Shown piece by piece: positions 2,124 through 57,472 of a DNA stretch of 64,000 bases (positions are counted from its first letter, which is position 1; every line of letters starts with the position of its first letter). A model generated the notes under the pieces. It had not been told where the DNA came from, made no database searches, and saw only the letters and a list, made by a program, of their open reading frames with translations. Source of the DNA: Candidatus Omnitrophota bacterium (GTDB taxonomy: Bacteria > Omnitrophota > Gorgyraeia > Zapsychrales > Zapsychraceae); contig JADFXQ010000001.1 in assembly GCA_015233495.1 (NCBI GenBank), positions 68,045 through 132,044 on the forward strand, given 5' to 3'. The translations under genes and the position numbers were made by a program.

Positions 2124-3115
2124 TTCTTTTTTTCCCTCTCTACTTGTTTGCGGCAATAATCCAATAAATGGTCTACCGTATCGGCAAACGCATATTTCGG
2201 CTGCCAGCCGGTCTCCGTTTCAAACTTTGCCGTGTCCGGAATGGATAAGGCAATATCCGTTGGCCGCAGCAACCCCGGGTCGACCCTCGACGGAATCGGC
2301 CGCCGGGCTTTTTGTTTTAATATTTCCAGAAATTCCCGGATCGTGACCGGATTTTTCGCGCCAATGTTATAAACCTCACCTGGCCGTCCTTGGGTCAACG
2401 CGATCCATAATGCCTCTGCCGCGTCCCGGGCGTCTAAGAGCGTCCGCTTCGCGTCTAAATTTCCGTGTGTCAGCTCAGTCTGCAGTCCGGCTTCAATGCG
2501 CGCGACCTGGGTCGCAAAGGCGGAGGCGAATAAATCCGGCCGGCGCGGACTGATATAGGGAAACATCCGCGCCCGGATAATTTTCATTCCATAACACAAA
2601 AAATAACATTCGCCCAAAAGGTCCTGCGTGACCTTGGAAACGGAATAAGGATTCACCCCCTGCAAAGGACACGTTTCATTAACGGGGATGTGCCGGGGAT
2701 CGACCCGGCCATAGACTTCCGACGAACTGCAAATCAAGATGTAGGGATCAAGTTTAAGCTGGCGCACCGCGTCGAGCAAATGCGCGGCGCCCATCATATT
2801 GTTATAAAGAACCGGCAAAGGCGCCTTGAACGAGGCCCGCACATCCGCGTCGGAAGCCACATGAACAATGCCGTCGGGCCGCACCAGATACAGCACTTCC
2901 AACACCGCGTGCAAATCCGTCAAATCCGCGTAATGAATTTCAACCCGGGACTCCACCCCTGCCAAATTGCGGCGCGCTGCCTTGCTCTGTCCTCGCGCCA
3001 GACCATGCACGCAGACATTGGGATGACGCGCCACAATATAATCGGCAAGATAACTTCCGGCCGCGCCGGTAATGCCCGCGATGAAAATCTTTTTAAATTT
3101 ACGCGTATCGTTCAT
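2120..3115 (-). CDS. NAD-dependent sugar nucleotide dehydratase/reductase (GDP-mannose 4,6-dehydratase / Rmd-like extended SDR)
   Basis: N-terminal GITGAAGSYLADYIV Rossmann motif like Gmd (GITGQDGSYLAE). YSVSK catalytic YxxxK. 331 aa. Confidence 0.65.
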   Translation of the reverse strand: MNDTRKFKKIFIAGITGAAGSYLADYIVARHPNVCVHGLARGQSKAARRNLAGVESRVEIHYADLTDLHAVLEVLYLVRPDGIVHVASDADVRASFKAPLPVLYNNMMGAAHLLDAVRQLKLDPYILICSSSEVYGRVDPRHIPVNETCPLQGVNPYSVSKVTQDLLGECYFLCYGMKIIRARMFPYISPRRPDLFASAFATQVARIEAGLQTELTHGNLDAKRTLLDARDAAEALWIALTQGRPGEVYNIGAKNPVTIREFLEILKQKARRPIPSRVDPGLLRPTDIALSIPDTAKFETETGWQPKYAFADTVDHLLDYCRKQVEREKKK

Positions 3116-3174
3116 ATTTTTTGTGAGTCGCGCTATTGGAACGAAAAGAAAATCCCAGCCATAATCGACCTGAA

Positions 3175-3870
3175 TCAGCGGTTCCCTTCCCCCCGCGCGC
3201 GCGCGATCCGTTCCGGGGTGCCGATATCATGAAACGACGATTCCGTGACAAAGGCGTAAAGACCTTGGGCAACAAGTTGAGGAAACAGGTCATATTCTAA
3301 CGAAAATTTTTCTCGTTGCGGCGTCAAAACAAAAATTTTTTTGGAAAAACAATATATCCCGGCGTTGGCAAATACCGGTCCGGCAGGAGCGAACGCGGAT
3401 TTTTCATGAAATGCCAAAATACGCTGCGCAGCATCGAAAATAACTGCGCCAAAATCCGCGCCATTATCGACCCGGGACACCGCCAGAGTTCCCAGGCTAT
3501 TCTTCTGACGGTGAAAACTTAAAAGAGCGTCCAGATCCGCCGGGCAAAAGGAATCGCCGTTAAATACAAAAAAATCGTCGGAAGCAATCAATCCCGAAGC
3601 TAATTGCAAAGCGCCCCCGGTGCCTAAAGGAGTGGTTTCGCGGGAAAATAATACCGCCATTCCCGGATTGGCTTGGTAATACGCTTCAATTTCTTGCGCC
3701 TGATACCCCGTGCACAGAATCACCCGGCGCGCGCCTTGCCCCCGCAATTGATCCATAATCCGGTCGAGAAACGGCCGGCCGTTCACCTGAGCCATGACCT
3801 TGGCATGCTCACCGATCACGGATCGCAACCGCGTACCCAACCCGCCGCAAAGAATAACCGCGTCAATCAA
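3175..3870 (-). CDS. sugar-phosphate nucleotidyltransferase (HddC/ManC-N-terminal-like)
   Basis: LIDAVILCGGLGTRLRS G-rich NTP-transferase motif. ORF track start is at 3918. A TTG at 3870 with GGGGAG SD upstream is more likely and removes the overlap with the upstream lipoprotein gene. Confidence 0.65.
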   Translation of the reverse strand: MIDAVILCGGLGTRLRSVIGEHAKVMAQVNGRPFLDRIMDQLRGQGARRVILCTGYQAQEIEAYYQANPGMAVLFSRETTPLGTGGALQLASGLIASDDFFVFNGDSFCPADLDALLSFHRQKNSLGTLAVSRVDNGADFGAVIFDAAQRILAFHEKSAFAPAGPVFANAGIYCFSKKIFVLTPQREKFSLEYDLFPQLVAQGLYAFVTESSFHDIGTPERIARARGEGNR

Positions 3871-5438: not shown

Positions 5439-5551
5439 ACAGGACACAAGTATTCTAAATTTTAATTCTAGTTTTTAATAGAAAATCAGGCAGACACAAC
5501 AAATTTTTAAATAAATGTAAACGACATTACTTGTGTCTTGTGTCTTGTGTC
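5439..5551. repeat. GACACAAG/CTTGTGTC terminal-inverted-heptamer intergenic element, copy 1 (forward)
   Basis: Left end is acaGGACACAAGta. Core is aaaatcaggcagacacaacaaattttt...aaatgtaaacgacat. Right end is taCTTGTGTCTTGTGTCTTGTGTC. Lies between convergent genes. Confidence 0.8.
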
Positions 5552-5555
5552 TTTT

Positions 5556-11141: not shown

Positions 11142-13394
11142 CTACCTCCCGGAAATTGACGTTGGAATCCCAATCGGAACAATCCGCAATATCATCCCCC
11201 GAACTCCGGAAAAATTACCTCTCTGAAATTCCGCGATCATCGCCGAGGTAAATTTTAAATCTATGCCCTGCCTCTCTCGCGTGACATCAACCGTGATATT
11301 AAAGTTAATCCCTCCGGGATTCATTCCCGCGAGCGGACTGGATAACACTTTGACATCCGCATTCTCCAATCGCGTCACTTCGCCATTTTTCAATTCCAAT
11401 TGCCGCCATTGAATCACAGAAACACCCTCCTCATGAACACGAGCAACTGTGTTTGACCGCATCGCAATACGCAAAGCGCTCATCTGAATCGCATGGCCAA
11501 AAAGAATGACCGTTTTGCCTCGCAGGTGGGTATCTTCGGCTATCTTCTTTAAAAAACGATACTGCCGCGCAATGAGGTCCAAATATCTTTCACCCCGGTT
11601 AAATGAAGCCAAAGCGCTCCCGGTGATATCATTCATGCCGGTTGTGCTCCCTCCCGGCCAAATACTCACACGTGTTGTTTCCATGTCTCCGGTCATCTTC
11701 CGGGGGGAAAGCCCAACCGACTGCATTTCTGCATGCAATGCTTCCGGCGGCTGCGCATAAGCAAAATGCGTCGCATCACCCATATCCATTTCATTGATGC
11801 CAGGTTCCACAGACACCGGAAGATTAACTCCCAACTCCCGCTTCACTAAATCCAAAAACGGCTGTGCCGTTTGTTGCGCACGTCGTAAACCCGAGGTGAT
11901 AACCACAACTTTCCCGGCAGCAATGTCGGCGCGATAGATATCGAACAATTGTTGACTTGTTTGTTGCGCCTGTTGCACTCCTTTGTCATTAAGAGAATCG
12001 AGAAACTCCTCATTTGCTTGCCCGTTTAAAACAAAATAGCGATTCGCATTCGTATGCCCGTGCCGGACCCCGACCAACTGAACGCCGCTCAGATCAACCC
12101 AAGGCTCGTCGGAAGTATAGGCGATTTCACCTTTTGTGTTGACCTGCAATTTACCATCAGTTGCGTTAACTGCTGTCCAACCTTGCATAGCCGGGCGAGT
12201 GGTCCCAACCGCCAACACAGATACCCGCGCGCGATCGCCGTCTTGACCGGATTTGTCCGTAGGAGAAGATGATCCAGTGATCGTTAAATTCTCTATGCCT
12301 AACCGCATATTTTCTCCGCCGGAAAAATATTGACGCGCAATAGTATCTTCACTCAACGGGTCTGTATCTTCTTTAATATAATTGAACACCCCTTTTTGGT
12401 AAGCCTGTAAGTATTGTTGATATATTTTCTCTTTCACCAAGGGATCATCTGTTAAAACGCCGCCGGTCTTCCCTTTATTACTGTACACTTGATTCAACAA
12501 CGCGTCTTTAAGCGCGATCTTATACCAAGAAGCCAGAATCATGCTATAAAACATCTGCCGTAGCGGAGCAAAATTTTTCCCTTCATTCACTTCCTTTTCA
12601 ATTTCGGGAATGATGATTTCTTTGACAGCCGCAGCAGCCATACTATGAGTTGAAATACGCGGCCGACGCTCAATATGAACCATACCGGTTCGTTCATCTT
12701 GGTCCCGCATTCTCAATCGGCCATCCGCCGCCAAAGCGGCATAATCTTCTTCTAACATTACCTTCAAATGGGAGCCCACAACAAAAGCCGTATGATCCCG
12801 TTCCCGAACCTTCGCATGCTCCGCGACAATCCAAACCTTATTGAATGTATCGACTGGAATATCAGTTGCCCCAAATTGCTTTTCCACCTTGGCATAGACC
12901 CGATCCCAAAAAGTCTTTCCTAATTGGCTATTAGGATACATCAATGACGCAGTCAATTGCTTCAAAATATAATCTTGTGCCAGCATATCCCGGCCAAGTA
13001 TTGTCTTCCCCAACTCCGCCGGAATGATTTTGTCCTTTTCGTATGGAGACAAATTTACCCAAAGATCATCTTCCTTGATCGTTAAAGCTGCTAAAAAATA
13101 TTTAATCAATTTCTGTGATTCTGTTTTGAACTCCGCGCTATCAATCTTGATCTGTGAGGAACCCGTATCCATAATAAAATCAAACAAAAGCGGGTTGTCA
13201 GCATGGATTTCAACGCCCTTCATGATAACCGGCATATAAGCTGGGTTGGAAAGAACCCTGGCTCCCGGCGCCGGCAAAAGCAAGGCCTGAGCCAAGGCCG
13301 CCGGAGAAAGCAGCCCGGAAAAAATAAATCCCCCAATGATCCCCACGCAGATCAATCGAAATATCAATGTCTTTTGGAATGTTTGCCTCTTCAT
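11142..13394 (-). CDS. large secreted protein: conserved N-terminal ~450-aa domain of unknown function fused to C-terminal histidine phosphatase (PGAM-family RHG) domain; paralog of 55163..57472
   Basis: Signal/anchor MKRQTFQKTLIFRLICVGIIGGFIFSGLL. N-domain LIKYFLAALTIKEDDLWVNLSPYEKDKIIP... is shared with the second paralog. C-terminal VGVRHGHTNANR has the RHG motif. Confidence 0.5.
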   Translation of the reverse strand: MKRQTFQKTLIFRLICVGIIGGFIFSGLLSPAALAQALLLPAPGARVLSNPAYMPVIMKGVEIHADNPLLFDFIMDTGSSQIKIDSAEFKTESQKLIKYFLAALTIKEDDLWVNLSPYEKDKIIPAELGKTILGRDMLAQDYILKQLTASLMYPNSQLGKTFWDRVYAKVEKQFGATDIPVDTFNKVWIVAEHAKVRERDHTAFVVGSHLKVMLEEDYAALAADGRLRMRDQDERTGMVHIERRPRISTHSMAAAAVKEIIIPEIEKEVNEGKNFAPLRQMFYSMILASWYKIALKDALLNQVYSNKGKTGGVLTDDPLVKEKIYQQYLQAYQKGVFNYIKEDTDPLSEDTIARQYFSGGENMRLGIENLTITGSSSPTDKSGQDGDRARVSVLAVGTTRPAMQGWTAVNATDGKLQVNTKGEIAYTSDEPWVDLSGVQLVGVRHGHTNANRYFVLNGQANEEFLDSLNDKGVQQAQQTSQQLFDIYRADIAAGKVVVITSGLRRAQQTAQPFLDLVKRELGVNLPVSVEPGINEMDMGDATHFAYAQPPEALHAEMQSVGLSPRKMTGDMETTRVSIWPGGSTTGMNDITGSALASFNRGERYLDLIARQYRFLKKIAEDTHLRGKTVILFGHAIQMSALRIAMRSNTVARVHEEGVSVIQWRQLELKNGEVTRLENADVKVLSSPLAGMNPGGINFNITVDVTRERQGIDLKFTSAMIAEFQRGNFSGVRGMILRIVPIGIPTSISGR

Positions 13395-13695: not shown

Positions 13696-14031
13696 CTATT
13701 GAGCTGAAAGAATCTCTTCAATGTATTTATTTAAACTATCGCCATTACGCAGGGCTTTAATCGTTATGGTCTTGTGAAGATCCGGGGAAATTCTTAACGG
13801 TATCTTCCCGGAAAATTTCCGGGACATAATCTGCGGCGGAATCGGCCGGCCGTCTTTTAACAAAATAGCTTCCATCTCCGCGGCCACGGCGCATAACTCT
13901 CGGAACACTTTAGATTCATCTTTTCCGTGCACCCCCCCTAAAAACAGACCCGGCGCCGTCCCAATATAGCATTGGTCCTCATCCGACCATTCCACGACTT
14001 TTAAATAAGCGGGCCTTTTTTGTTTAATCAT
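13696..14031 (-). CDS. hicB: HicB family antitoxin
   Basis: HicB-like RNaseH-fold N-terminal region and a C-terminal RHH-like tail. Start MIKQKRP overlaps the hicA stop. Confidence 0.65.
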   Translation of the reverse strand: MIKQKRPAYLKVVEWSDEDQCYIGTAPGLFLGGVHGKDESKVFRELCAVAAEMEAILLKDGRPIPPQIMSRKFSGKIPLRISPDLHKTITIKALRNGDSLNKYIEEILSAQ

Positions 14032-14222
14032 TTCTGCGCCTCCCACAAAGCAATTTTAACCGCTTGCTCTTGATACGGTAAAGCATCATCGCCCAATTGA
14101 CCGGAAATAACAACCGCCGGGTGTAGCGGGTGAACAAACTTCCGATGACTGCCCTTGCCGCCCCGGTTAGCAAACCCCATTTTTTCCAAATCCCTGATCA
14201 ATTCGCGAATTTTGCGTAGCAT
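14028..14222 (-). CDS. hicA: HicA family mRNA interferase toxin
   Basis: 64 aa, ...GFANRGGKGSHRKFVHP... The GSH-containing YcfA/HicA motif. Confidence 0.7.
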   Translation of the reverse strand: MLRKIRELIRDLEKMGFANRGGKGSHRKFVHPLHPAVVISGQLGDDALPYQEQAVKIALWEAQK

Positions 14223-14284
14223 AATAATGATATCATTGTAATATCACATTTACAAGAAAATTTTTATTAAATTAAACCCCCATT

Positions 14285-24062: not shown

Positions 24063-24175
24063 CAGGACACAAGTCATGTCGTTTACAATTTTTATAAATT
24101 TTGTTGTGTTTGCCTGATTTTATCTTAAAAAATAAGATTAAAATTTACAATACTTGTGTCCTGTGTCCTTGTGTC
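24063..24175. repeat. GACACAAG/CTTGTGTC element, copy 2 (reverse orientation)
   Basis: Core aaattttgttgtgtttgcctgatttt is the reverse complement of the copy-1 core. The ends are ccaGGACACAAGtc ... taCTTGTGTCCTGTGTCCTTGTGTC. Confidence 0.8.
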
Positions 24176-34344: not shown

Positions 34345-34704
34345 TCATGTCTCCAGGCTGAACGACGGCAGGGCATCGGAACTTTTATCTAGGAGTTTTT
34401 TAAGACGGCTCATAGATTCGTCTTCCATTTTCGTGAAATAAAAAGCAAAACCTTCGCCGGCCACGATCCGGGAAATGCGCGCCATACCTTGAATAAGGTT
34501 GTGTTCATTGCCGGGAGCGGACGGAAAAGCGAAACCGATCTCGTCGCTTAACTTCAAAAACACGTTTTCCCGTATGCGGATAAACGCGCTCTTTAAAGAG
34601 ATGTCCTTCAGCCGTCCGTTTAAAGTTAATTGCTCTCCGATACGAATCTGGGCCGGCAAGTCCGAATTGTATCGCGATTCCCTGCGTAAATTTTGCGTTT
34701 CCAT
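34345..34704 (-). CDS. PilZ domain c-di-GMP receptor
   Basis: RRESRY (RxxxR) followed by LKDISLKSAFI (D/NxSxxG-like) PilZ motifs. 119 aa. Confidence 0.65.
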   Translation of the reverse strand: METQNLRRESRYNSDLPAQIRIGEQLTLNGRLKDISLKSAFIRIRENVFLKLSDEIGFAFPSAPGNEHNLIQGMARISRIVAGEGFAFYFTKMEDESMSRLKKLLDKSSDALPSFSLET

Positions 34705-34745: not shown

Positions 34746-35795
34746 TTATAAATGCTGCTTTCCCGCAGCTTTATCTGTGTAAACCCCGACTGCCGCCACT
34801 CGGTTTCTCCCCTGCTGTTTCGCGCGATAGAGCGCCCAATCCGCTTTTTCAAGAATTTCCTCCGCGGTTTTACCGTCTTGCGGGAACGTGGCAATGCCGA
34901 TGCTCAGGGTGACTTGATACGTTCCGTCATAAGCCCTGACTACGGTCTTTTCCATAGCTAAACGGATACGTTCCGCGGCATACTTCGCGCCGTCCGATCC
35001 GGTATCCGGCAATATCACGCAAAATTCTTCCCCGCCAAAGCGGCCATCAATATCAATCTCCCGGATATTGGTCTTAATCACTTGCCCGACCTCCCGCAAT
35101 ACCTGATCGCCGGTAAAGTGGCCGTATTGATCATTAAAAGTTTTAAAATGATCCACGTCTGCCATAAGAAAAGAAACCTCGGTTTTATGGTTTTTCGAGC
35201 GGCTTACCTCTTCCGCGAAACGCTCCAAAGCGTAACGCCGGGTGTGCACCGCAGTCAAACTGTCGGTGATCGCGATTCTTTCGATTTCTTCATACAACTT
35301 GACCCGGCGCAAAGCCAAAGCAAACTGATGTCCCAAGATCATCAACTTATCTTCTTCCTGGGCAGGCATCCCGGTCACCACCAAATATCCCAGGCGCCGG
35401 CGTTTAACATGCAGCGAGAATACAAAAACCTGGTCTGGCGTCCAGTAATGGTTTCCTTTATGCGGGAGGTTGATGGCCTCGGGTAAAACATCGAGAAGCA
35501 GACACTCGGCGAACCGGACGTGTTCCCTTAATTTCTTTTTGAACAACTCCAAAGCCTCCGCTTCCTTTTGGGACTGGGTAATATCTTTAGTCATTTCATA
35601 GAGAGTAAAAATCTGAATCGCCCGGTCTTCCAAAGCCATTTTTTGATCGAAATACGCATTTTTCTCCGCTACGCATTTTTGATAATCGGCTTGCTGGTCT
35701 GCCAGCTTCTTTTCTAACCGGACAAACACCCGCCGGACAAGATAGCGGGAGGCCAGCATCACCACTGCGACATAAACAATTAAAAAGCCAATCAT
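34746..35795 (-). CDS. membrane-anchored GAF-like/GGDEF diguanylate cyclase
   Basis: N-terminal TM and a coiled region. GGEEF active site with the RYGGEEF context and the RxxD I-site region. Confidence 0.85.
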   Translation of the reverse strand: MIGFLIVYVAVVMLASRYLVRRVFVRLEKKLADQQADYQKCVAEKNAYFDQKMALEDRAIQIFTLYEMTKDITQSQKEAEALELFKKKLREHVRFAECLLLDVLPEAINLPHKGNHYWTPDQVFVFSLHVKRRRLGYLVVTGMPAQEEDKLMILGHQFALALRRVKLYEEIERIAITDSLTAVHTRRYALERFAEEVSRSKNHKTEVSFLMADVDHFKTFNDQYGHFTGDQVLREVGQVIKTNIREIDIDGRFGGEEFCVILPDTGSDGAKYAAERIRLAMEKTVVRAYDGTYQVTLSIGIATFPQDGKTAEEILEKADWALYRAKQQGRNRVAAVGVYTDKAAGKQHL

Positions 35796-35828: not shown

Positions 35829-37187
35829 TTATACATAGCACACACGGTTACGGCCTTGCTCTTTAGCCCGATATAATGACTGGTCTGCCTGGGCGATCAA
35901 TTCATCTTTATCCCGGCCGTCCTGCGGAAAAGCGGCGACCCCGATAGAAATCGTGACGCGCGTCCGCTCCCGGCGCAAAAAAATCGTCTGCCCGGCAATT
36001 TTCTCCCTCAGCCCTTCGGCCAATTCCGCAGCTTTCGTCTTCGAACAGTCCGGCAATAAAACACAGAATTCTTCTCCGCCATAACGCGCCACCAAACTGC
36101 CCGGAATATGACTGAAATAATCCGTCATGGCCATCGCCGCCGTCTTCAGCACAATATCGCCAGCTACATGGCCAAACCGGTCGTTATAATCTTTAAATTT
36201 GTCCAAATCCATCATCAAAAAAGCCAAGGATTCCTGCCTGCGAACGTGTCGGCTGATCTCCTGCGCTATGCGCCCCATCAAATAGCGGCGTTGATACAAA
36301 TTGGTCAAGCCGTCAAAAATCGCCAATTGCTCCGCGCGTTCATACAACTGCGCATTTTCCACGGCGACCGCGGCTAAATCGGCGATCGCCGCGAGAAAAC
36401 GCAAATCATCGGTCGTAAAAAATTTTTCCCGGGGATGATCGACACGCAAAATTCCCAAAGTCCGTTGACCCACGACAAGCGGAACGCTGATCAAAGAACC
36501 GACTACCCGAGAGTCCTCCCCGGCGATTTTTTCTACGTCAAACCGATAATCGCCCCGGCTGTCTTCCACCAAAAGCGGCTGCAAGGTTTTGACTACCCAA
36601 CGGTCAAACGCGTCACCCTGCTTCGATTTGATACTAACGCGGTTCAGCCCTTTTTGCGACGACGAAATTCCAAACTCTCCGGTTTTCGCGTGAAATAAAT
36701 AAAGGATCACGGTGGCCTCGGAGCCTTTACCGGCGGCAATCAAACGATGCGCCTCATTAGTCAGCATCTTCGAGGTGTCAAGTGTGTAGAGGCACTGGCC
36801 TAACAATTCCGTGAGGTCTTTTAACTTGGCTAAAAGCGCAATTTTGTCTTCAAGCGCGGCTATGGCTTTCGTTTCCGCGGCAATTTCCGCGGTCACCAAA
36901 TTACGCGACTCAAAAATATCCTGCGATTTAAAATTATGTTCCGCTTGATAAGCGGACAGCCTTTTACCCCAATAAAAAAAATAAAGGATCAAACAAAATA
37001 AAGCGGCAGCCAAATTGATAAAAAAACGGGGGTCCTGTTTAATCGCAAAATGAAAAAAAAACGCCAAGGGAAACCCAAATAAGGCGAGGAAATAGAGGAC
37101 TTGCTCAGATGATCGTTTTTTCAGTAACGGGATCAAAGAAATGCACCTTGCCCATGTTAAACACAACCTCCATGTCCCGATTGACAT
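35829..37187 (-). CDS. membrane-anchored GAF-GGDEF diguanylate cyclase (start uncertain)
   Basis: GAF region (LISVPLVVGQRTLGILRV) and GGEEF motif. A tandem paralog of the neighbouring DGC. The ORF-track start overlaps the ABC ATPase 3' end by ~80 nt, so the true start is probably a downstream alternative codon near 37127. Confidence 0.75.
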   Translation of the reverse strand: MSIGTWRLCLTWARCISLIPLLKKRSSEQVLYFLALFGFPLAFFFHFAIKQDPRFFINLAAALFCLILYFFYWGKRLSAYQAEHNFKSQDIFESRNLVTAEIAAETKAIAALEDKIALLAKLKDLTELLGQCLYTLDTSKMLTNEAHRLIAAGKGSEATVILYLFHAKTGEFGISSSQKGLNRVSIKSKQGDAFDRWVVKTLQPLLVEDSRGDYRFDVEKIAGEDSRVVGSLISVPLVVGQRTLGILRVDHPREKFFTTDDLRFLAAIADLAAVAVENAQLYERAEQLAIFDGLTNLYQRRYLMGRIAQEISRHVRRQESLAFLMMDLDKFKDYNDRFGHVAGDIVLKTAAMAMTDYFSHIPGSLVARYGGEEFCVLLPDCSKTKAAELAEGLREKIAGQTIFLRRERTRVTISIGVAAFPQDGRDKDELIAQADQSLYRAKEQGRNRVCYV

Positions 37188-40959: not shown

Positions 40960-41409
40960 TTATTTTGTAAAATGTGTTTTTAATTTATGCTTTTGAGCGG
41001 CAGCTAACAACGCCCCATCGTAGGTCAATAACGGGATATGCCCTAATCGCGCAGACAAATCCAAGTAGGCGGCGTCATAAGTTGTAAGATGATAAGTTCG
41101 TGCGATATCAAGAACGGAAGTGTTTAACCAGCCGGGTGACGATATTGCGTCAATAAACAACGGAAGCCGGCTGGCCATGTCGAGAATTCTTTCTTGAGTA
41201 TGGCGATTTAAGCGTCCTTTATTTTCTGCCATAACCAAGATATTCATGAATTCATAAACAAAAATAGACGGGACGTGGATTTTGATTCTATCTATTTTGT
41301 CAAGCGCCCCAGAATGCTCCCCGGCAGACTCATCCGGAAGAAACCATGAAGCCACAACATTAGCGTCAACGACAACAGATGATATTAAGCTCGACCCTGT
41401 CTTTTCCAT
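40960..41409 (-). CDS. vapC: PIN-domain toxin (VapC-like)
   Basis: VVDANVVASWF...(D) acidic PIN residues, YDAAYLDLS, 149 aa. Paired with the upstream small antitoxin. Confidence 0.65.
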   Translation of the reverse strand: MEKTGSSLISSVVVDANVVASWFLPDESAGEHSGALDKIDRIKIHVPSIFVYEFMNILVMAENKGRLNRHTQERILDMASRLPLFIDAISSPGWLNTSVLDIARTYHLTTYDAAYLDLSARLGHIPLLTYDGALLAAAQKHKLKTHFTK

Positions 41410-43349: not shown

Positions 43350-43487
43350 GACACAGGACACAAAGACATAAGATATGTTGCACACGTCATTTTAAAATTT
43401 TAATGTGTCTGTCTGATCATCCTTTAAAAAATAAAATACTAAATCACAACACTTGTGTCCTGTGTCTTTGTGTCTTGTGTCCTTGTA
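43350..43487. repeat. GACACAAG/CTTGTGTC element, copy 5 (reverse), between dnaK and dnaJ
   Basis: GACACAGGACACAAAGACATAAG ... core ... CTTGTGTCCTGTGTCTTTGTGTCTTGTGTCCTTGTa. This is the longest heptamer array. Confidence 0.8.
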
Positions 43488-46252: not shown

Positions 46253-46990
46253 TCACCACATCTCTTCCAGCAACCGCGAAAAGTAATCCAGCGTAGAGAC
46301 AACGCGTTCATAATCCATACGCGTCGGTCCCAACACCGCGAGCCTGCCGCTCGGCCCATGATGCGTTTTATAACGCGATACAACCAACGAACACGTAGTC
46401 ATGCCTTGGCACCGAATCTCCTGACCAATATGAATATCAATCTTCCGCTGCAAATCCCGGTTAATCATATCCAGCAGCCGTTCCTTTTCATCCAACGCGA
46501 ATAAAATATGCCGGATACTTTCAATATCCTGATAATCGGGATACGCGGCAATGAAATTCGTCCCCCGGCAAAAAACCCGCCGCAAATCTCCGTCAATCGA
46601 AACCAGACTCGTATAATGCGTAGTTTCCGCCAGCACCTTTGAAGTGCGGTCCAAAATATCCTCCAACTCGCGAGTCTTGCGGTCATATTCCATCTTGATC
46701 CGCCGCTTTTCTTCTTCTAACAGATAAATTTCTTCCATCAAATAATCGACATAATACCGATACCCCCACTGGGTCGGAACCCGGCCCGCCGAAGTATGCG
46801 GATGAGTCAAATATCCTTCCTCTTCCAATTCCGCGAGAATATTCCGCACCGTGGCGGAACTCAATTCCGGCAAATATTTTTCCACAATCAATGCCGAACT
46901 TACCGGAGAAATATGATGAATATACTGCCCCACCGTAATCGCCAAAACCCGGTCTTTCCGCGCTTGAATTTCTGCTTTTTTAGTTTGCAT
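46253..46990 (-). CDS. hrcA: heat-inducible transcription repressor HrcA
   Basis: HrcA winged-helix N-terminus (ARKDRVLAITVGQYIHHISPVSS) and a GAF-like C-domain. Start MQTKK with a GGGAG SD. The longer ORF-track N-terminus overlaps CIRCE. Confidence 0.85.
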   Translation of the reverse strand: MQTKKAEIQARKDRVLAITVGQYIHHISPVSSALIVEKYLPELSSATVRNILAELEEEGYLTHPHTSAGRVPTQWGYRYYVDYLMEEIYLLEEEKRRIKMEYDRKTRELEDILDRTSKVLAETTHYTSLVSIDGDLRRVFCRGTNFIAAYPDYQDIESIRHILFALDEKERLLDMINRDLQRKIDIHIGQEIRCQGMTTCSLVVSRYKTHHGPSGRLAVLGPTRMDYERVVSTLDYFSRLLEEMW

Positions 46991-47034
46991 CCGTCTGCTC
47001 CCCATTTGGTTTTTCGTTCCCCGGAACGAAAAAC

Positions 47035-47061
47035 TTAGCACTCTATAAATCAGAATGCTAA
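47035..47061. promoter_or_regulatory. CIRCE operator (HrcA binding site) upstream of hrcA-grpE-dnaK-dnaJ
   Basis: TTAGCACTC-tataaatca-GAATGCTAA matches the CIRCE consensus TTAGCACTC-N9-GAGTGCTAA with one mismatch. The adjacent perfect palindrome TTCGTTCC-cc-GGAACGAA (47015..47032) lies between CIRCE and the start codon. Confidence 0.8.
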
Positions 47062-47083
47062 AGCGCAATTATAACAAAAAAGT

Positions 47084-51694: not shown

Positions 51695-51916
51695 ATGGTG
51701 CGCATGAATATAACAATGCCGGATCGGATAGCTCAAAAACTATCTAACATAAACAATAAAAGCCGTTTTATCGCCGAAGCCGTCGAGGAAAAAATCGACA
51801 CCCAAGAAAAACAAATACTTTTTGCGGCTTTGTCTCAAGAATACAAACAAATGTCAATGCGGCAAAAAACATTCATCAAAGATTGGCAAAAAATTGAAAC
51901 CGAGGGCTGGGAATGA
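51695..51916 (+). CDS. ribbon-helix-helix (CopG/MazE-like) antitoxin
   Basis: 73 aa, MVRMNITMPDRIAQKL... RHH N-terminus. The stop overlaps the toxin ATG (ATGA). Confidence 0.55.
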   Translation: MVRMNITMPDRIAQKLSNINNKSRFIAEAVEEKIDTQEKQILFAALSQEYKQMSMRQKTFIKDWQKIETEGWE

Positions 51917-52260
51917 AAAATCCGCATCCCCAACGCGGAGAAATTTGGGTCGTTCAATTGGATCCCGCGATCGGCTCCGAAATCAAAAAAACCAGACCCG
52001 CCTTAATTATTTCAAACAACGCGCATAATCGTTTCATGGGCCATTTGACAGTTTTACCCATCAGCGACGCGGGTGAGAAAGTTTATTTAGTCGAGGTATT
52101 CCTCCCCGCCGGCATAGCAAACTTAACAAAAAATTCCAAAATCCGCTGTCATCAAATCCGAACCATTGACAAATCCCGTTTTATTAAACCGATAGGTTCC
52201 ATTCCACAAATGTATTGGGAATCTATTGAAAAAGCCCTGCGAATCCATTTAAATTTTTAG
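51913..52260 (+). CDS. MazF/PemK family endoribonuclease toxin
   Basis: GEIWVVQLDPAIGSEIKKTRPALIIS is the classic PemK/MazF N-terminus. 115 aa. Confidence 0.8.
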   Translation: MKNPHPQRGEIWVVQLDPAIGSEIKKTRPALIISNNAHNRFMGHLTVLPISDAGEKVYLVEVFLPAGIANLTKNSKIRCHQIRTIDKSRFIKPIGSIPQMYWESIEKALRIHLNF

Positions 52261-53578: not shown

Positions 53579-54469
53579 TTATTTCTTCAACAGCTTCTTA
53601 TTCTGCGGAATTGTAAGATAATTTTCCCGACTGACAACCAAGTCTCCGCTTTTTTGTTCCAATTCTTTTCTGGCATTGCCGGCCACACTTCCACCGTCAA
53701 TGGCTGCCTGCTTATTCGAATCAAAACCCTGGGAATTACGGCCGCGGGCGATTTTTGTCGTTGATGCTTCCCCAAGCATGGAGAAAATCAATTCCAAATC
53801 CGTCATATGATCCCGCAAATTCTGACGACTCAATCCCTTATATTTTTTATACTCGGAAGGGGTCATCCCAAATGCCGCTTTTGAAATTTCTGCAGTTAAA
53901 ATCGCGTAATTCTGCTGGTCTTTAATACCTCGTTTGTTCCATTCATCCGTCAATTCCTCCCTAATGGCAATACCGCGCACGCGTTTTTCAATCCACTCCT
54001 CCGAATATCCTTTTGCTTTATAAATCGCCCTTAAGCGTTTCATAGCCAGTTCGGGGTCTTCAATTTCCTGAACGCGCTCATAACCAACTTTAGCCAACCA
54101 GCGTTTAAATGGTTCTGCTTTGGGCGACGGTATCGTCTGAATAATACGAAATAAGCTTTCAGTATTAGCACAGTCTGTCAAATATTCCTTGCCGTCAGAT
54201 GCCATTAATTTCAGTTGTCCGATTTTTTCGGACACCTCAACATACCCTTCTTGAATCAATTTTTTCTTTAAATCGCTCCAATATTTCCTGGGTCTTGCTG
54301 TTTCAGTGAGCGCCTCCACAACATCAATAACCGAAAACCACCATTCATTCTGATGAATCGTTTTCCTAACCTGCTTTCCTTTAAAAACAGCAATTTTGGT
54401 TACACTGATTTCATTGCGCATCTCCGCCTCCCCCCATCCAAAACGATTCAAAAATATCAACCACAACAA
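53579..54469 (-). CDS. Bro-N domain protein, DNA-damage-inducible protein D (DinD)-like
   Basis: Bro-N-like N-terminus (VFKGKQVRKTIHQNEWWFSVIDVVEAL). The C-terminal region parallels E. coli DinD (...AILTAEISKAAFGMTPSEYKKYKGLSRQNLRDHMTDLEL...). Confidence 0.55.
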   Translation of the reverse strand: MLWLIFLNRFGWGEAEMRNEISVTKIAVFKGKQVRKTIHQNEWWFSVIDVVEALTETARPRKYWSDLKKKLIQEGYVEVSEKIGQLKLMASDGKEYLTDCANTESLFRIIQTIPSPKAEPFKRWLAKVGYERVQEIEDPELAMKRLRAIYKAKGYSEEWIEKRVRGIAIREELTDEWNKRGIKDQQNYAILTAEISKAAFGMTPSEYKKYKGLSRQNLRDHMTDLELIFSMLGEASTTKIARGRNSQGFDSNKQAAIDGGSVAGNARKELEQKSGDLVVSRENYLTIPQNKKLLKK

Positions 54470-54496: not shown

Positions 54497-54579
54497 TCAT
54501 GCACAAAACAACATCTTATTATGCACAAATTGACATGACTTCATGCACAAAACAGCAAAAAATTACGCACAAGTTGACA
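54497..54579. repeat. four direct 17-mer repeats T(C/T)A(T/C)GCACAA(A/G)(A/T)(C/T)(A/G)(A/G)CA spaced 21-23 bp upstream of the dinD-like gene
   Basis: tcATGCACAAAACAACA, ttATGCACAAATTGACA, tcATGCACAAAACAGCA, ttACGCACAAGTTGACA at 54497, 54518, 54541 and 54563. Confidence 0.6.
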
Positions 54580-54641
54580 AATGTTGATTTTTCCGTCGGT
54601 GAGCATCTTTTGAAATAGACGATGAAATGGCCCCATTGATT

Positions 54642-57472
54642 TTATCTGGCCCGGACCGGATGACCTCCCACGGATCCTGCGCATAAAAACTCCGGCAAGG
54701 TTTGGGACAGCGGAAACACTCCGAGAACGTCTGGCGACAAACCCCGGAAATCGGCAACACCCGCTGGGTCAAACCGAAAGGTCCAAGACCCGCCGCGGGT
54801 CTCGACGCCTTCCTCGAGTAGATCAATTCCGCCGTTGGCTGGCTGCCGTCCTACGGGCGAAGCAGCAGGTTTTTCTGGAACGACCAACGGCAAATAAACC
54901 GTGAATTTTGAACCTTTTCCCAATTCTGAAACAGCTTCGATATTCCCATACATTTGATGCACAATCATGTAAACAGCTTCCAAGCCGAGCCCTGTTCCGG
55001 GAACATCTCCGACATTGCCGGCCCGAAACCCCCTGTAAAAAACTTTTTCGATTTCACCCGACGGTATACCAATGCCCGTGTCCTCAACTTCCAAAACCAT
55101 GCACGGCTTCTCTGACTGACCGGAGTATTTGAGCTGTTTTGAAGCTTTGGCGAGTCGAACTGTCACCCCCCCCGTGGTGTGTATTTGATCGCGTTTTGCA
55201 GAAGATTATCCACAACCACTTTCAGCCAATTAACGTCACAACGCGCCACAAACATATCCTCATCCGTTAATTCCACGCGAAAATCCAATCCTTTCGCAAC
55301 TGCCCGACTTCTCCCAGCCGCGACACTTGCGGCAATCAATGGCGTGACATTTCTCGTCTGAAAATCACTGCCTTGCTCTAATAAACCAATAAAAAGATCC
55401 GACGCGTCCATCACATAATTTTCCGACGCGTTATATTTTAAATACTGCTTTAATGATTCCATGGCCTGCGGCGATTGAGCATCTGCCGCGTGAATTAGCT
55501 CTAATAACCGGGGAATATGTCCATATATAAATGGATATATCCCCAAGGGAAATGCATCCACTCCGCCATTGTGCCTCAATGAAGTCATAAAATCACAAAA
55601 ATCGTTATAACCGTTTCTCTTTAATAAATCCCGAACACCAAACCAAGGGGCGTTTCCCTGCCCAATGAGATGATTGAGCCGCCCTGCGAATGCCGCTTTT
55701 TCCGCCTCGGTAATTTCGCCGTTGGTCTGAACCCCAGGCAAAGAGCGTCCGGCATAAATCTGAATATATCCGTCTTCCTTTTCCTGCCATTGTTTAAAAT
55801 CCGGAGACGCCATAACCCCGGAAAACATCCCGGATTCGCGCATCGCAACTTTCGCTTGAGTCCGCTTGCGTTCCTCGGCGTCCCGATCTAATCCGCCGAA
55901 TATTTCATTCTTATGAAGAACTAAAGATGTCAGTTCTTTTTCACTAAAACCAAAAGAATAATGAAAATCATAAGAAAAATCCCTGCCCCACCAAATCATC
56001 ACTTTGTCCACTTTAAAATCTCTGGCTGTTTCCCGCAAAAATGCGTCCATTCGTTGTCTGATCCGGGGTTCAACAATCCCGAATACTGCCGGCAATGCCC
56101 TAATCGCGTCAACGTGGATTTTGATTTCATCCCCGGCTTGACGAATTTGCGGATAAGCGTCCCGCTCAAAAGCCTGAATGCCTTGTTCTTGCAATACCTT
56201 TAATCCTTTAGCAAACGCGGCCTGCAGTCCGGGATATAATGCTCGCATCGCCTTCATATGCGCGGTCAATCTGTCCCTGGCTTCCTTAATTGTTAACCGC
56301 CGCGGTTCGGCGGAATACGTCGGACTGGAGGAAGCCGAATCAAAATTCAGCCGCACCGGAATTTCGCGGTACCGGCGCGTTGATCCGTTTTGCGGAATTT
56401 GGGCAGGAGAGGAAACCGTTTCAATCGCCGCTGACGCCAGAGCCACACCGCCGGAAAAATATTTCCGCGTCACGCTTTCTTCCGTGAGCGGGTCATAATC
56501 TTCCTTGGTCGTGTTATACACGCCTTGTTTGAAGGCCGCGATGTATCGGTTATACATTTTCTCTTTAATGGTTTTGTCCGCGAGGTCAATGCCGACAATC
56601 TTATTTTGGTCCGCGTAAGACCGGCCGAGGATGCTGTCTTTGAGTTTGCGTTTAAACCAAGAAGCCAAGATAAACGAATGGACCACCTGGCGCAGAGGGG
56701 CAAAATGAGCGCCTTCATTGACTTCTTTTTCCAAGGCCGGGATAACAACCTCGCGGGTGATTCGGGCGGCAATGTCGTCCATCGGGCAAGACGGCGCACG
56801 CGCGACAGCGGGTTTTGCCGCGCGCTGACCGATATAGTCTTGCTCCAACATGACTTTTAACCGGCTTTCAACAACATAGGCCGTGGCCTCGGTTTTTGTT
56901 CTTCCGCCCTCGTAAACCACTGCCTTGTCGAGAACAATCCAGACTTTATTCAATGTCTCGATCGGGATATCAGTCGTGCCATAACGCTGTCGCGCATAGC
57001 CGTAAACCTTTTCCCAGAATTCCTTGCCGACCGGGCTATCGGGATTGAGCAAAGACGCGGTGATTTGTTTGAGGATAAAATCCTGGCTTAAAAGATCGCG
57101 GCCCAGGTCCGTGACTGCCAGGCTGTCGGGGATGACCCGGTTTTTTTCATAAGGCGAGAGATTCACCCAAAGATCTTTTTCCGGAACGGTCAACGCGGCC
57201 AGAAAATATTTGACGAGTCGGCCGGATTCCGTTTTCAGTTTTTCCGGCAAGTAATCCGCGTTCCCGACATCCAAAATAAAATCCAATTTAAACGGATTAT
57301 CTGCGTAGACCTTGACGCCTTTCAACAAAGGCGGGCCGAATTCCAGGCTCAATGCCGGCCGGCTGACGGTCGCCGGCAGTTGCGCCAGTCCCTGACCCGC
57401 AACCGGATCAACCTGGGCGCTGATAAACGCCGATAAAATGAAAATGGCAACAATGCGTCGCGTCATAAACAA
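54642..57472 (-). pseudogene. large secreted sensor-like protein (paralog of 11142..13394) with C-terminal GHKL/histidine-kinase-type ATPase domain, split by frameshift in a G8 (plus-strand C8) homopolymer at 55166..55173
   Basis: ORFs 55163..57472 and 54642..55166 are in different frames. Inserting one G gives the continuous protein ...NLLQNAIKYTPRGGVTVRLAKASK...VEDTGIGIP...FYRGF...GTGLGL...GSKFTVYLPL (N, G1, F, G2 boxes). The N-terminal ~450 aa are homologous to 11142..13394. Confidence 0.55.

Follow-up and report, generated by a model that had tools for sequence, protein, structure and literature searches.

A G8 tract that splits a histidine kinase-type gene of a modular Omnitrophota family: a probable recent frameshift and its alternatives

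Single-base changes in homopolymers inside coding regions are known to inactivate bacterial signaling proteins. In the virulent/avirulent phase variation of Bordetella pertussis, slipped-strand mispairing at a C6/C7 run within the sensor kinase gene bvgS truncates and inactivates the protein; both alleles have been observed, interconvert in culture and have a phenotype (PMC1891110, citing Stibitz et al., 1989). In Campylobacter jejuni, indels in coding-region homopolymers of flgR/flgS turn a two-component signaling protein OFF, and reversion restores the frame; the flgR tracts are described as A/T runs (PMC3930126). At programmed −1 frameshifting sites, exemplified by Escherichia coli dnaX (A_AAA_AAG) and IS911, an in-frame X_XXY_YYZ heptamer is combined with a downstream open reading frame (ORF) at −1 (PMC4066793). 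Two further points of comparison are the homopolymer-indel pseudogenes, or "frameshifted" genes, of draft genomes and metagenome-assembled genomes (MAGs), and the giant proteins of Omnitrophota (bioRxiv 10.1101/2023.11.21.568195).

The locus compared with them here lies in a 64,000-nucleotide stretch of a Candidatus Omnitrophota bacterium MAG (assembly GCA_015233495.1, contig JADFXQ010000001.1, positions 68,045 to 132,044 of the forward strand; hereafter the window, whose positions are used throughout). In this window, a minus-strand gene encoding a histidine kinase-type catalytic domain is split into two ORFs at a run of eight G (C8 on the plus strand) read at 55166-55173. Among the described systems, homopolymer-indel pseudogenes are the best-fitting category for the split gene, and we consider it probable, with guarded confidence, that the split represents a real loss-of-function allele, produced recently by slipped-strand mispairing in one of the many paralogs of a large family. 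We infer that the 8-G state is real in cells, arose by slippage and is a plain loss of function in a redundant family, not a selected switch.

The split gene and its catalytic domain

On the minus strand, window 55180-55161 reads ACA CCA CGG GGG GGG TGA CA and is preceded by the codons AAA TAC. The tract corresponds to the codons CGG GGG GGG plus the first G of GTG, and it is here that the frame changes by one base. The upstream ORF (55163-57466, minus strand) has 767 aa from an ATG at 57466, or 769 aa from a TTG at 57472, and ends ...NAIKYTPRGG before a TGA stop at 55163-55165. It is identical (100%) to the NCBI protein HQL23_00575 (P0001), annotated as a "hypothetical protein" of "Candidatus Omnitrophica bacterium," carried on a 187-kb contig and the sole member of its protein cluster. 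The downstream ORF (54642-55166, minus strand; 174 aa) lies in the −1 frame relative to the upstream one and begins with a GTG (55164-55166) that overlaps the upstream stop as GTGA. Encoded in it are the G1, F and G2 boxes and a C-terminal tail; it has no internal stop in its 174 codons and aligns with orthologs to its end.

One additional G in the tract (9 G) joins the two frames into a single ORF, of 943 aa from TTG 57472 or 941 aa from ATG 57466, in which the junction is at residue 769/770. The tract sits 81% along the gene, within a conserved motif of the catalytic domain. Pfam HATPase_c (PF02518) matches residues 746-863 of the fusion (54885-55237, minus strand; profile 2-109 of 111, E 7.9e-21), spanning the junction and interrupted by the tract. 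The N-box LLQNAIKYTPRGG (55166-55204) is followed in the downstream frame by the G1 box VEDTGIGI (55065-55088), the F box FYRGF (55026-55040) and the G2 box GTGLGL (54981-54998), all on the minus strand. Only in the 9-G reconstruction do the four boxes stand in order within a complete domain, whereas the 8-G assembly cuts the domain past the N-box. A first-pass annotation, made by reading the sequence alone, had described this arrangement, and its description proves accurate in every detail: the two ORFs abut at the C8 run, 9 G fuses them into one continuous protein, the four boxes are intact in the fusion exactly as it had written them, and with 8 G the stop directly follows LLQNAIKYTPRGG.

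Searched against PDB sequences, the catalytic domain matches WalK/YycG (3sl2, E 2e-14), with NAIKYTPRGG aligned to NALKYSPEGG through the junction, as well as VicK and HK853. In an AlphaFold (AF2) model of residues 585-868, the catalytic domain has a pLDDT of 80-93 and the frame change falls in the loop that links the N-box helix to the following beta strand. The best Foldseek matches of the model in the PDB are the DHp-CA structures of HK853, YycG and CckA, with E about 2e-13. The reconstructed domain is thus predicted to have the alpha/beta sandwich fold of histidine kinase catalytic domains.

Ahead of the catalytic domain, the helical region is modeled with a pLDDT of only 50-69; the Foldseek alignments to the DHp-CA structures extend over about 250 columns, but with a large root-mean-square deviation, and the reconstructed protein has no Pfam match to HisKA. 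In the motif LRHNGGVD (55556-55579, minus strand), four aligned orthologs agree in every residue of LRHNGG and in the final D, and the seventh residue is V or I. The invariant His, 129 residues ahead of the N-box Asn, is a candidate phospho-acceptor (H-box-like) site. A Response_reg domain was found in none of the 58 ORFs scanned with Pfam, a set that stops short of the last ~4 kb of the window; the neighboring genes are miaA, a Bro-N protein gene, hflX and a PemK toxin gene. The term "kinase-type" is justified for the ATP-binding domain, and the status of a classical two-component sensor is putative.

Origin of the tract and state of the gene

In a search of 5.8 billion proteins, only three matched the reconstructed protein past the generic catalytic domain: P0002 (956 aa), P0121 (912 aa) and P0122 (923 aa), each encoded by a single ORF. 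When aligned with P0002, the 9-G product shows 50% identity across 98% of its length, with values of 53.5% on the upstream side of the junction and 45% on the downstream side. The alignment is gap-free at the junction, where YTPRGGVTVRL is paired with YTREGRVIVRL. A tblastn-based scan of metagenome contigs, capable of detecting split copies too, yielded six more homologous loci (L084-L089), 36-47% identical over the whole or nearly the whole of a 284-residue query. A scan of genome contigs with the ortholog alignment, uninformative for the tract, found nothing but generic histidine kinases that are 30-45% identical over the catalytic domain. All nine homologs are uninterrupted and single-frame, and none has a G run at the tract site. 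The genes of the three orthologs read GAA GGA AGG GTT, CAA GGA AGT ATC and GAA GGC GGT ATC at this site and contain no G/C run of 6 or more anywhere. Because the nine homologs lack a G run there, the tract appears to be private to this MAG. The first-pass annotation had proposed comparing tract length and integrity among orthologs; the comparison, with nine intact homologs that lack the tract, argues against an evolved switch.

Codon usage offers a simple origin for the run. As CGG-GGG-GGG-GTG, it encodes the R-G-G-V of the conserved N-box, and in the window CGG makes up 45% of Arg codons, GGG 25% of Gly codons and GTG 40% of Val codons; the GC content of this genome is roughly 50%, vs 40-44% at the three ortholog loci from the protein database. 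Judged from these sequences, the tract would be incidental, fully explained by preferred codons for conserved residues. A G8 run per se is within chance, since dinucleotide shuffles contain a mean of 4.6 per window and at least one in 97 of 100 shuffles. Such runs are depleted in the window, with 1 observed against 4.6 expected, and GGG-GGG is avoided, being used in 3 of the 124 Gly-Gly dicodons; no other simple-repeat switching candidate was found in the 64 kb. The placement of the tract is not due to chance: the two frames that meet exactly there combine into one complete domain and one collinear alignment with an ortholog.

Removal of two G from the tract, leaving 6 G, restores the frame too, with loss of one residue of the canonical P-x-G-G, and was rejected as the in-frame ancestor. 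We take 9 G as the ancestral in-frame state because the 9-G product aligns gap-free, whereas 6 G loses the P-x-G-G residue. Slippage on such a poly-G run would remove or add a single G, and an ancestral 9-G run may have lost one G during replication, leaving the gene out of frame. Translation of the 8-G allele would then end directly past the N-box helix, and the product would be unable to bind ATP, hence kinase-dead, because the G1, F and G2 boxes and the ATP lid are lost. The event is probably young in evolutionary terms, since none of the 174 downstream codons has become a stop and the match to orthologs persists. The identity of this fragment to orthologs is only 35-45%, and synonymous sites are saturated. 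Taken by itself, the intact downstream frame does not discriminate between a young event, a reversible one and an artefact. Redundancy is evident within the MAG, which encodes at least three members of the family (HQL23_00575, HQL23_07120 and the window gene at 11142-13394).

Several points weigh against a genuine loss-of-function allele. The population is represented by just one assembly: exact 16-nt and 14-nt flanks separated by a free gap of 5-12 nt found no second copy in two collections, of genome and of metagenome contigs, and the only protein more than 50% identical to the product of the split gene is the one NCBI protein. The lack of any further downstream damage is equally expected from an artefact or from a reversible switch. 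An exported, highly paralogous family is typically the class of genes in which contingency tracts are found. Finally, an assembly or consensus error is possible at what is the longest G/C run of the window.

Such an error is the alternative that fares best, although we judge it unlikely. In the cells the gene would be intact, with 9 G, and one G would have been dropped from the consensus. Low-coverage MAG consensus sequences can miscall homopolymer length, and the position of the break in the single longest G/C run of 64 kb, the perfectly intact sequence downstream and the reliance on one assembly would all be accounted for. The behavior of the other homopolymers speaks against it. The window contains 53 long runs (A/T of at least 7, G/C of at least 6); besides G8, 42 of them lie inside ORFs, among them one A9, seven A8/T8 and one C7, and all 42 keep their frames open. 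Some 50 of the 58 ORFs run through Pfam are neighboring genes; their domains are essentially full-length, and the gene broken at G8 is the only split one in the window. A suspected truncation of hrcA (46253-47068) was not borne out, this gene being intact and including its N-terminal winged-helix region. Because the other in-ORF homopolymers keep frames open and the neighbors have near-complete domains, the data set does not appear homopolymer-error-prone, and a systematic homopolymer sequencing problem is unlikely. Illumina HiSeq data have a low indel error at runs of 8-9 nt, and HiSeq with metaSPAdes assembly is the probable platform. The probable source is a survey of magnetotactic bacteria that used Illumina HiSeq, metaSPAdes and MetaWRAP reassembly (Lin et al., 2020; PMC7602337); we infer the link of the MAG to this survey from its organism name and from the HQL15-HQL23 series of locus tags. 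In data of this type, runs of 8-9 nt rarely suffer a consensus error, but the risk is not negligible. The homopolymer sequencing error that the first-pass annotation had named as its own alternative keeps some probability, weakened by the fact that the genes at all other homopolymers of the window are unbroken.

Improbable, in our assessment, is the explanation that the first-pass annotation had put first, namely a contingency locus in which the tract is maintained and reversible slippage between 8 G and 9 G toggles the kinase-type protein OFF and ON in the population. The repeat does stand where it would toggle the frame, with G8 at the junction and 9 G restoring one 943-aa ORF. A G8/G9 tract is long enough to slip at a raised rate, and even shorter runs, C6/C7 in bvgS, can switch a sensor kinase (PMC1891110). 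An undamaged downstream part, a signal peptide (by sequence reading) and membership in a large paralogous family fit a switch as well. A maintained tract is, however, hard to reconcile with its absence from all nine homologs, with three closest ortholog genes devoid of long G/C runs, or with a window in which G8 is depleted, GGG-GGG is avoided and no second repeat of the switching type occurs. The tract lies late in the ORF, where a conserved catalytic motif is encoded, and is fully explained by preferred codons; in the one assembly known, no length polymorphism was observed. With these observations set against it, the contingency claim is left with the general slippage tendency of G8/G9 runs as its sole basis, and we regard it as unsupported. 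If it were true, subpopulations of possibly magnetotactic Omnitrophota would reversibly toggle an exported kinase-type protein of the modular family, with a putative role in interaction with a host or prey. A stable mixture of 8 G and 9 G among reads would be a first hint of homopolymer phase variation in Omnitrophota, by a mechanism that is itself textbook.

Recoding, in which the 8-G gene would be made full-length by −1 ribosomal frameshifting on G_GGG_GGG or by RNA polymerase slippage, is very improbable. Its appeal is formal: CG[G GGG GGG] UGA is a perfect X_XXY_YYZ heptamer in the 0 frame with a stop directly after it, and since the downstream ORF lies in the −1 frame, slippage would yield exactly ...PRGGVTVRL.... 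No stimulatory structure was found downstream, where the 90 nt past the site fold with z = +0.47 and 137 of 200 shuffles fold at least as well, and a wider 121-nt context gives z = +0.65 against shuffles. To our knowledge, transcriptional slippage sites are A/T runs. None of the Shine-Dalgarno-like stimulators listed for −1 sites (GAGG, GGAG, AGGA, GGNGG, AGGKG) occurs in the 30 nt upstream, the 6-17 nt interval included, and GGN codons shift by −1 less well than AAN or UUN (PMC4066793). All nine homologs are single-frame, and the two-frame arrangement is not conserved. Programmed −1 frameshifting was therefore rejected as unlikely, lacking a stimulatory structure, a Shine-Dalgarno-like motif and conservation.

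Hardly credible at all is a functional split, in which a 174-aa piece made by termination-reinitiation at GTGA would reassemble with the 767-aa piece: a stop/start overlap of this kind is typical of translationally coupled genes, but the break would cut the catalytic domain in two where the N-box helix gives way to the next strand, each of the nine homologs is a single chain, no correctly spaced ribosome-binding site is available because the G run lies immediately against the GTG, and the collection of 5.8 billion proteins contains no protein corresponding to the 174-aa piece.

With a young loss-of-function allele as the favored reading, HQL23_00575 and the unannotated 174-aa frame are best annotated as one frameshifted histidine-kinase-type gene. 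In counts of kinase-type or modular family members in this MAG, the split gene counts once and should be flagged as disrupted.

The modular family and other features of the window

As reconstructed, the protein consists of a signal-peptide-like N-terminus (MTRRIVAIFILSAFISAQV, 57407-57466; by sequence reading only, with no predictor), an N-terminal module of about 340 aa that has no Pfam model (56354-57367), a helical region of ~350 aa, the histidine kinase-type catalytic domain and a C-terminal tail (NGGIDL...FRFDPA..., 54684-54839) that aligns with the tail of the ortholog P0002; all are on the minus strand. The helical region is confined to a handful of orthologs among the 5.8 billion proteins searched. 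The N-terminal module is common to more than 3000 Omnitrophota proteins and to a paralog in the window (11142-13394, minus strand), which has a His_Phos_1 domain and a module 45% identical to that of the split gene. Relatives that share the module carry PPDK_N, methyltransferase, radical SAM, His_Phos, GNAT, AAA_5 or HATPase_c domains. The tails of the split gene and the window paralog resemble each other by eye, a similarity unreported by tblastn.

Both window genes follow the same plan: a signal-peptide-like start, the shared module and a single enzymatic domain that varies between members. The combination of export with cytoplasmic-type domains that depend on ATP or S-adenosylmethionine suggests delivered effectors. 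In the metagenome loci L084-L089, which come from JGI metagenome contigs, the helical region and the catalytic domain (match at about 3001-3850) lie within open frames of at least 1400 to 2280 aa; these lengths are lower bounds, as the frames extend beyond the fetched loci. Their location in such long open frames implies that the kinase-type module is also a cassette within giant genes. The gene family, with its thousands of members and its kinship to giant-protein modules, is more interesting than the tract.

The spacer that separates the split gene from the start of the downstream-lying Bro-N domain gene (53579-54469, minus strand) contains, at window 54500-54580, three copies of ATGCACAAA and a degenerate fourth (TTTGTGCAT on the minus strand). 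From its sequence, this repeat pattern looks like operator sites. A second kind of repeat is the heptamer CTTGTGT/CCTGTGT (ACACAAG on the minus strand), which forms tandem arrays at 5530-5553, 24153-24175 and 43452-43486 and occurs as single copies at 5444, 24067, 26368, 42157, 51676 and 62495. Of 15 heptamer copies, 13 are intergenic, and the arrays lie directly 3' of minus-strand stop codons, e.g., in the dnaK-dnaJ spacer; they could be a 3' untranslated region element or a regulatory repeat.

Toxin-antitoxin-type genes are found at 13696-14230 (minus strand), 40960-41409 (minus strand) and 51913-52260 (plus strand). They include a HicB antitoxin (13696-14046), preceded by a small ORF that is a putative HicA by reading, as well as a PIN-domain protein and a PemK/MazF toxin; a C7 run at 13932-13938 is in frame within hicB. 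Two GGDEF diguanylate cyclase genes are adjacent, at 34746-35795 and, with a GAF domain, at 35829-37187, followed by the gene of a small PilZ protein at 34345-34704, all on the minus strand. Close to its 5' end, at 36974-37061, the cyclase gene at 35829-37187 contains in-frame runs of A7, A8 and A9, which are T runs when read in the coding sense.

Comparison with described systems

The split gene shares with dnaX/IS911-type sites the in-frame X_XXY_YYZ heptamer and the −1 position of the downstream ORF. It differs from them in having an all-G heptamer, of a class that shifts poorly, in the lack of a hairpin and of an upstream Shine-Dalgarno-like element, and in being unconserved.

Its likeness to bvgS lies in the G/C homopolymer within a histidine-kinase-type coding region, where a change of one base by slipped-strand mispairing would truncate and inactivate the protein. 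Whereas two interconverting alleles are known for bvgS, here there is one allele in one assembly, from an uncultured environmental bacterium, and the split gene has neither a Pfam HisKA match nor an identified partner response regulator. The C. jejuni flgR/flgS case is similar in that a coding-region indel turns the protein OFF and its reversion would restore the frame, and differs in the A/T composition of the flgR tracts. C. jejuni has many hypervariable homopolymer tracts genome-wide and is without MutS/MutL mismatch repair. In the Omnitrophota window, by contrast, G/C runs are depleted.

Compared with the giant Omnitrophota proteins, the window gene is short, ~940 aa with a single enzymatic domain between the N-terminal module and the C-terminal tail. 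The enzymatic repertoire is the same (HATPase_c, radical SAM, PPDK_N, AAA_5), and six homologs of the kinase-type module are found in open frames of at least 1400 aa.

Homopolymer-indel pseudogenes of draft genomes and MAGs offer the closest parallel. The split gene differs from them in being free of additional degenerative changes, which means that the allele, if real, is very young. It resembles them in a frame disrupted by a single indel relative to intact orthologs, in belonging to a redundant paralog family and in a tract that is not conserved.

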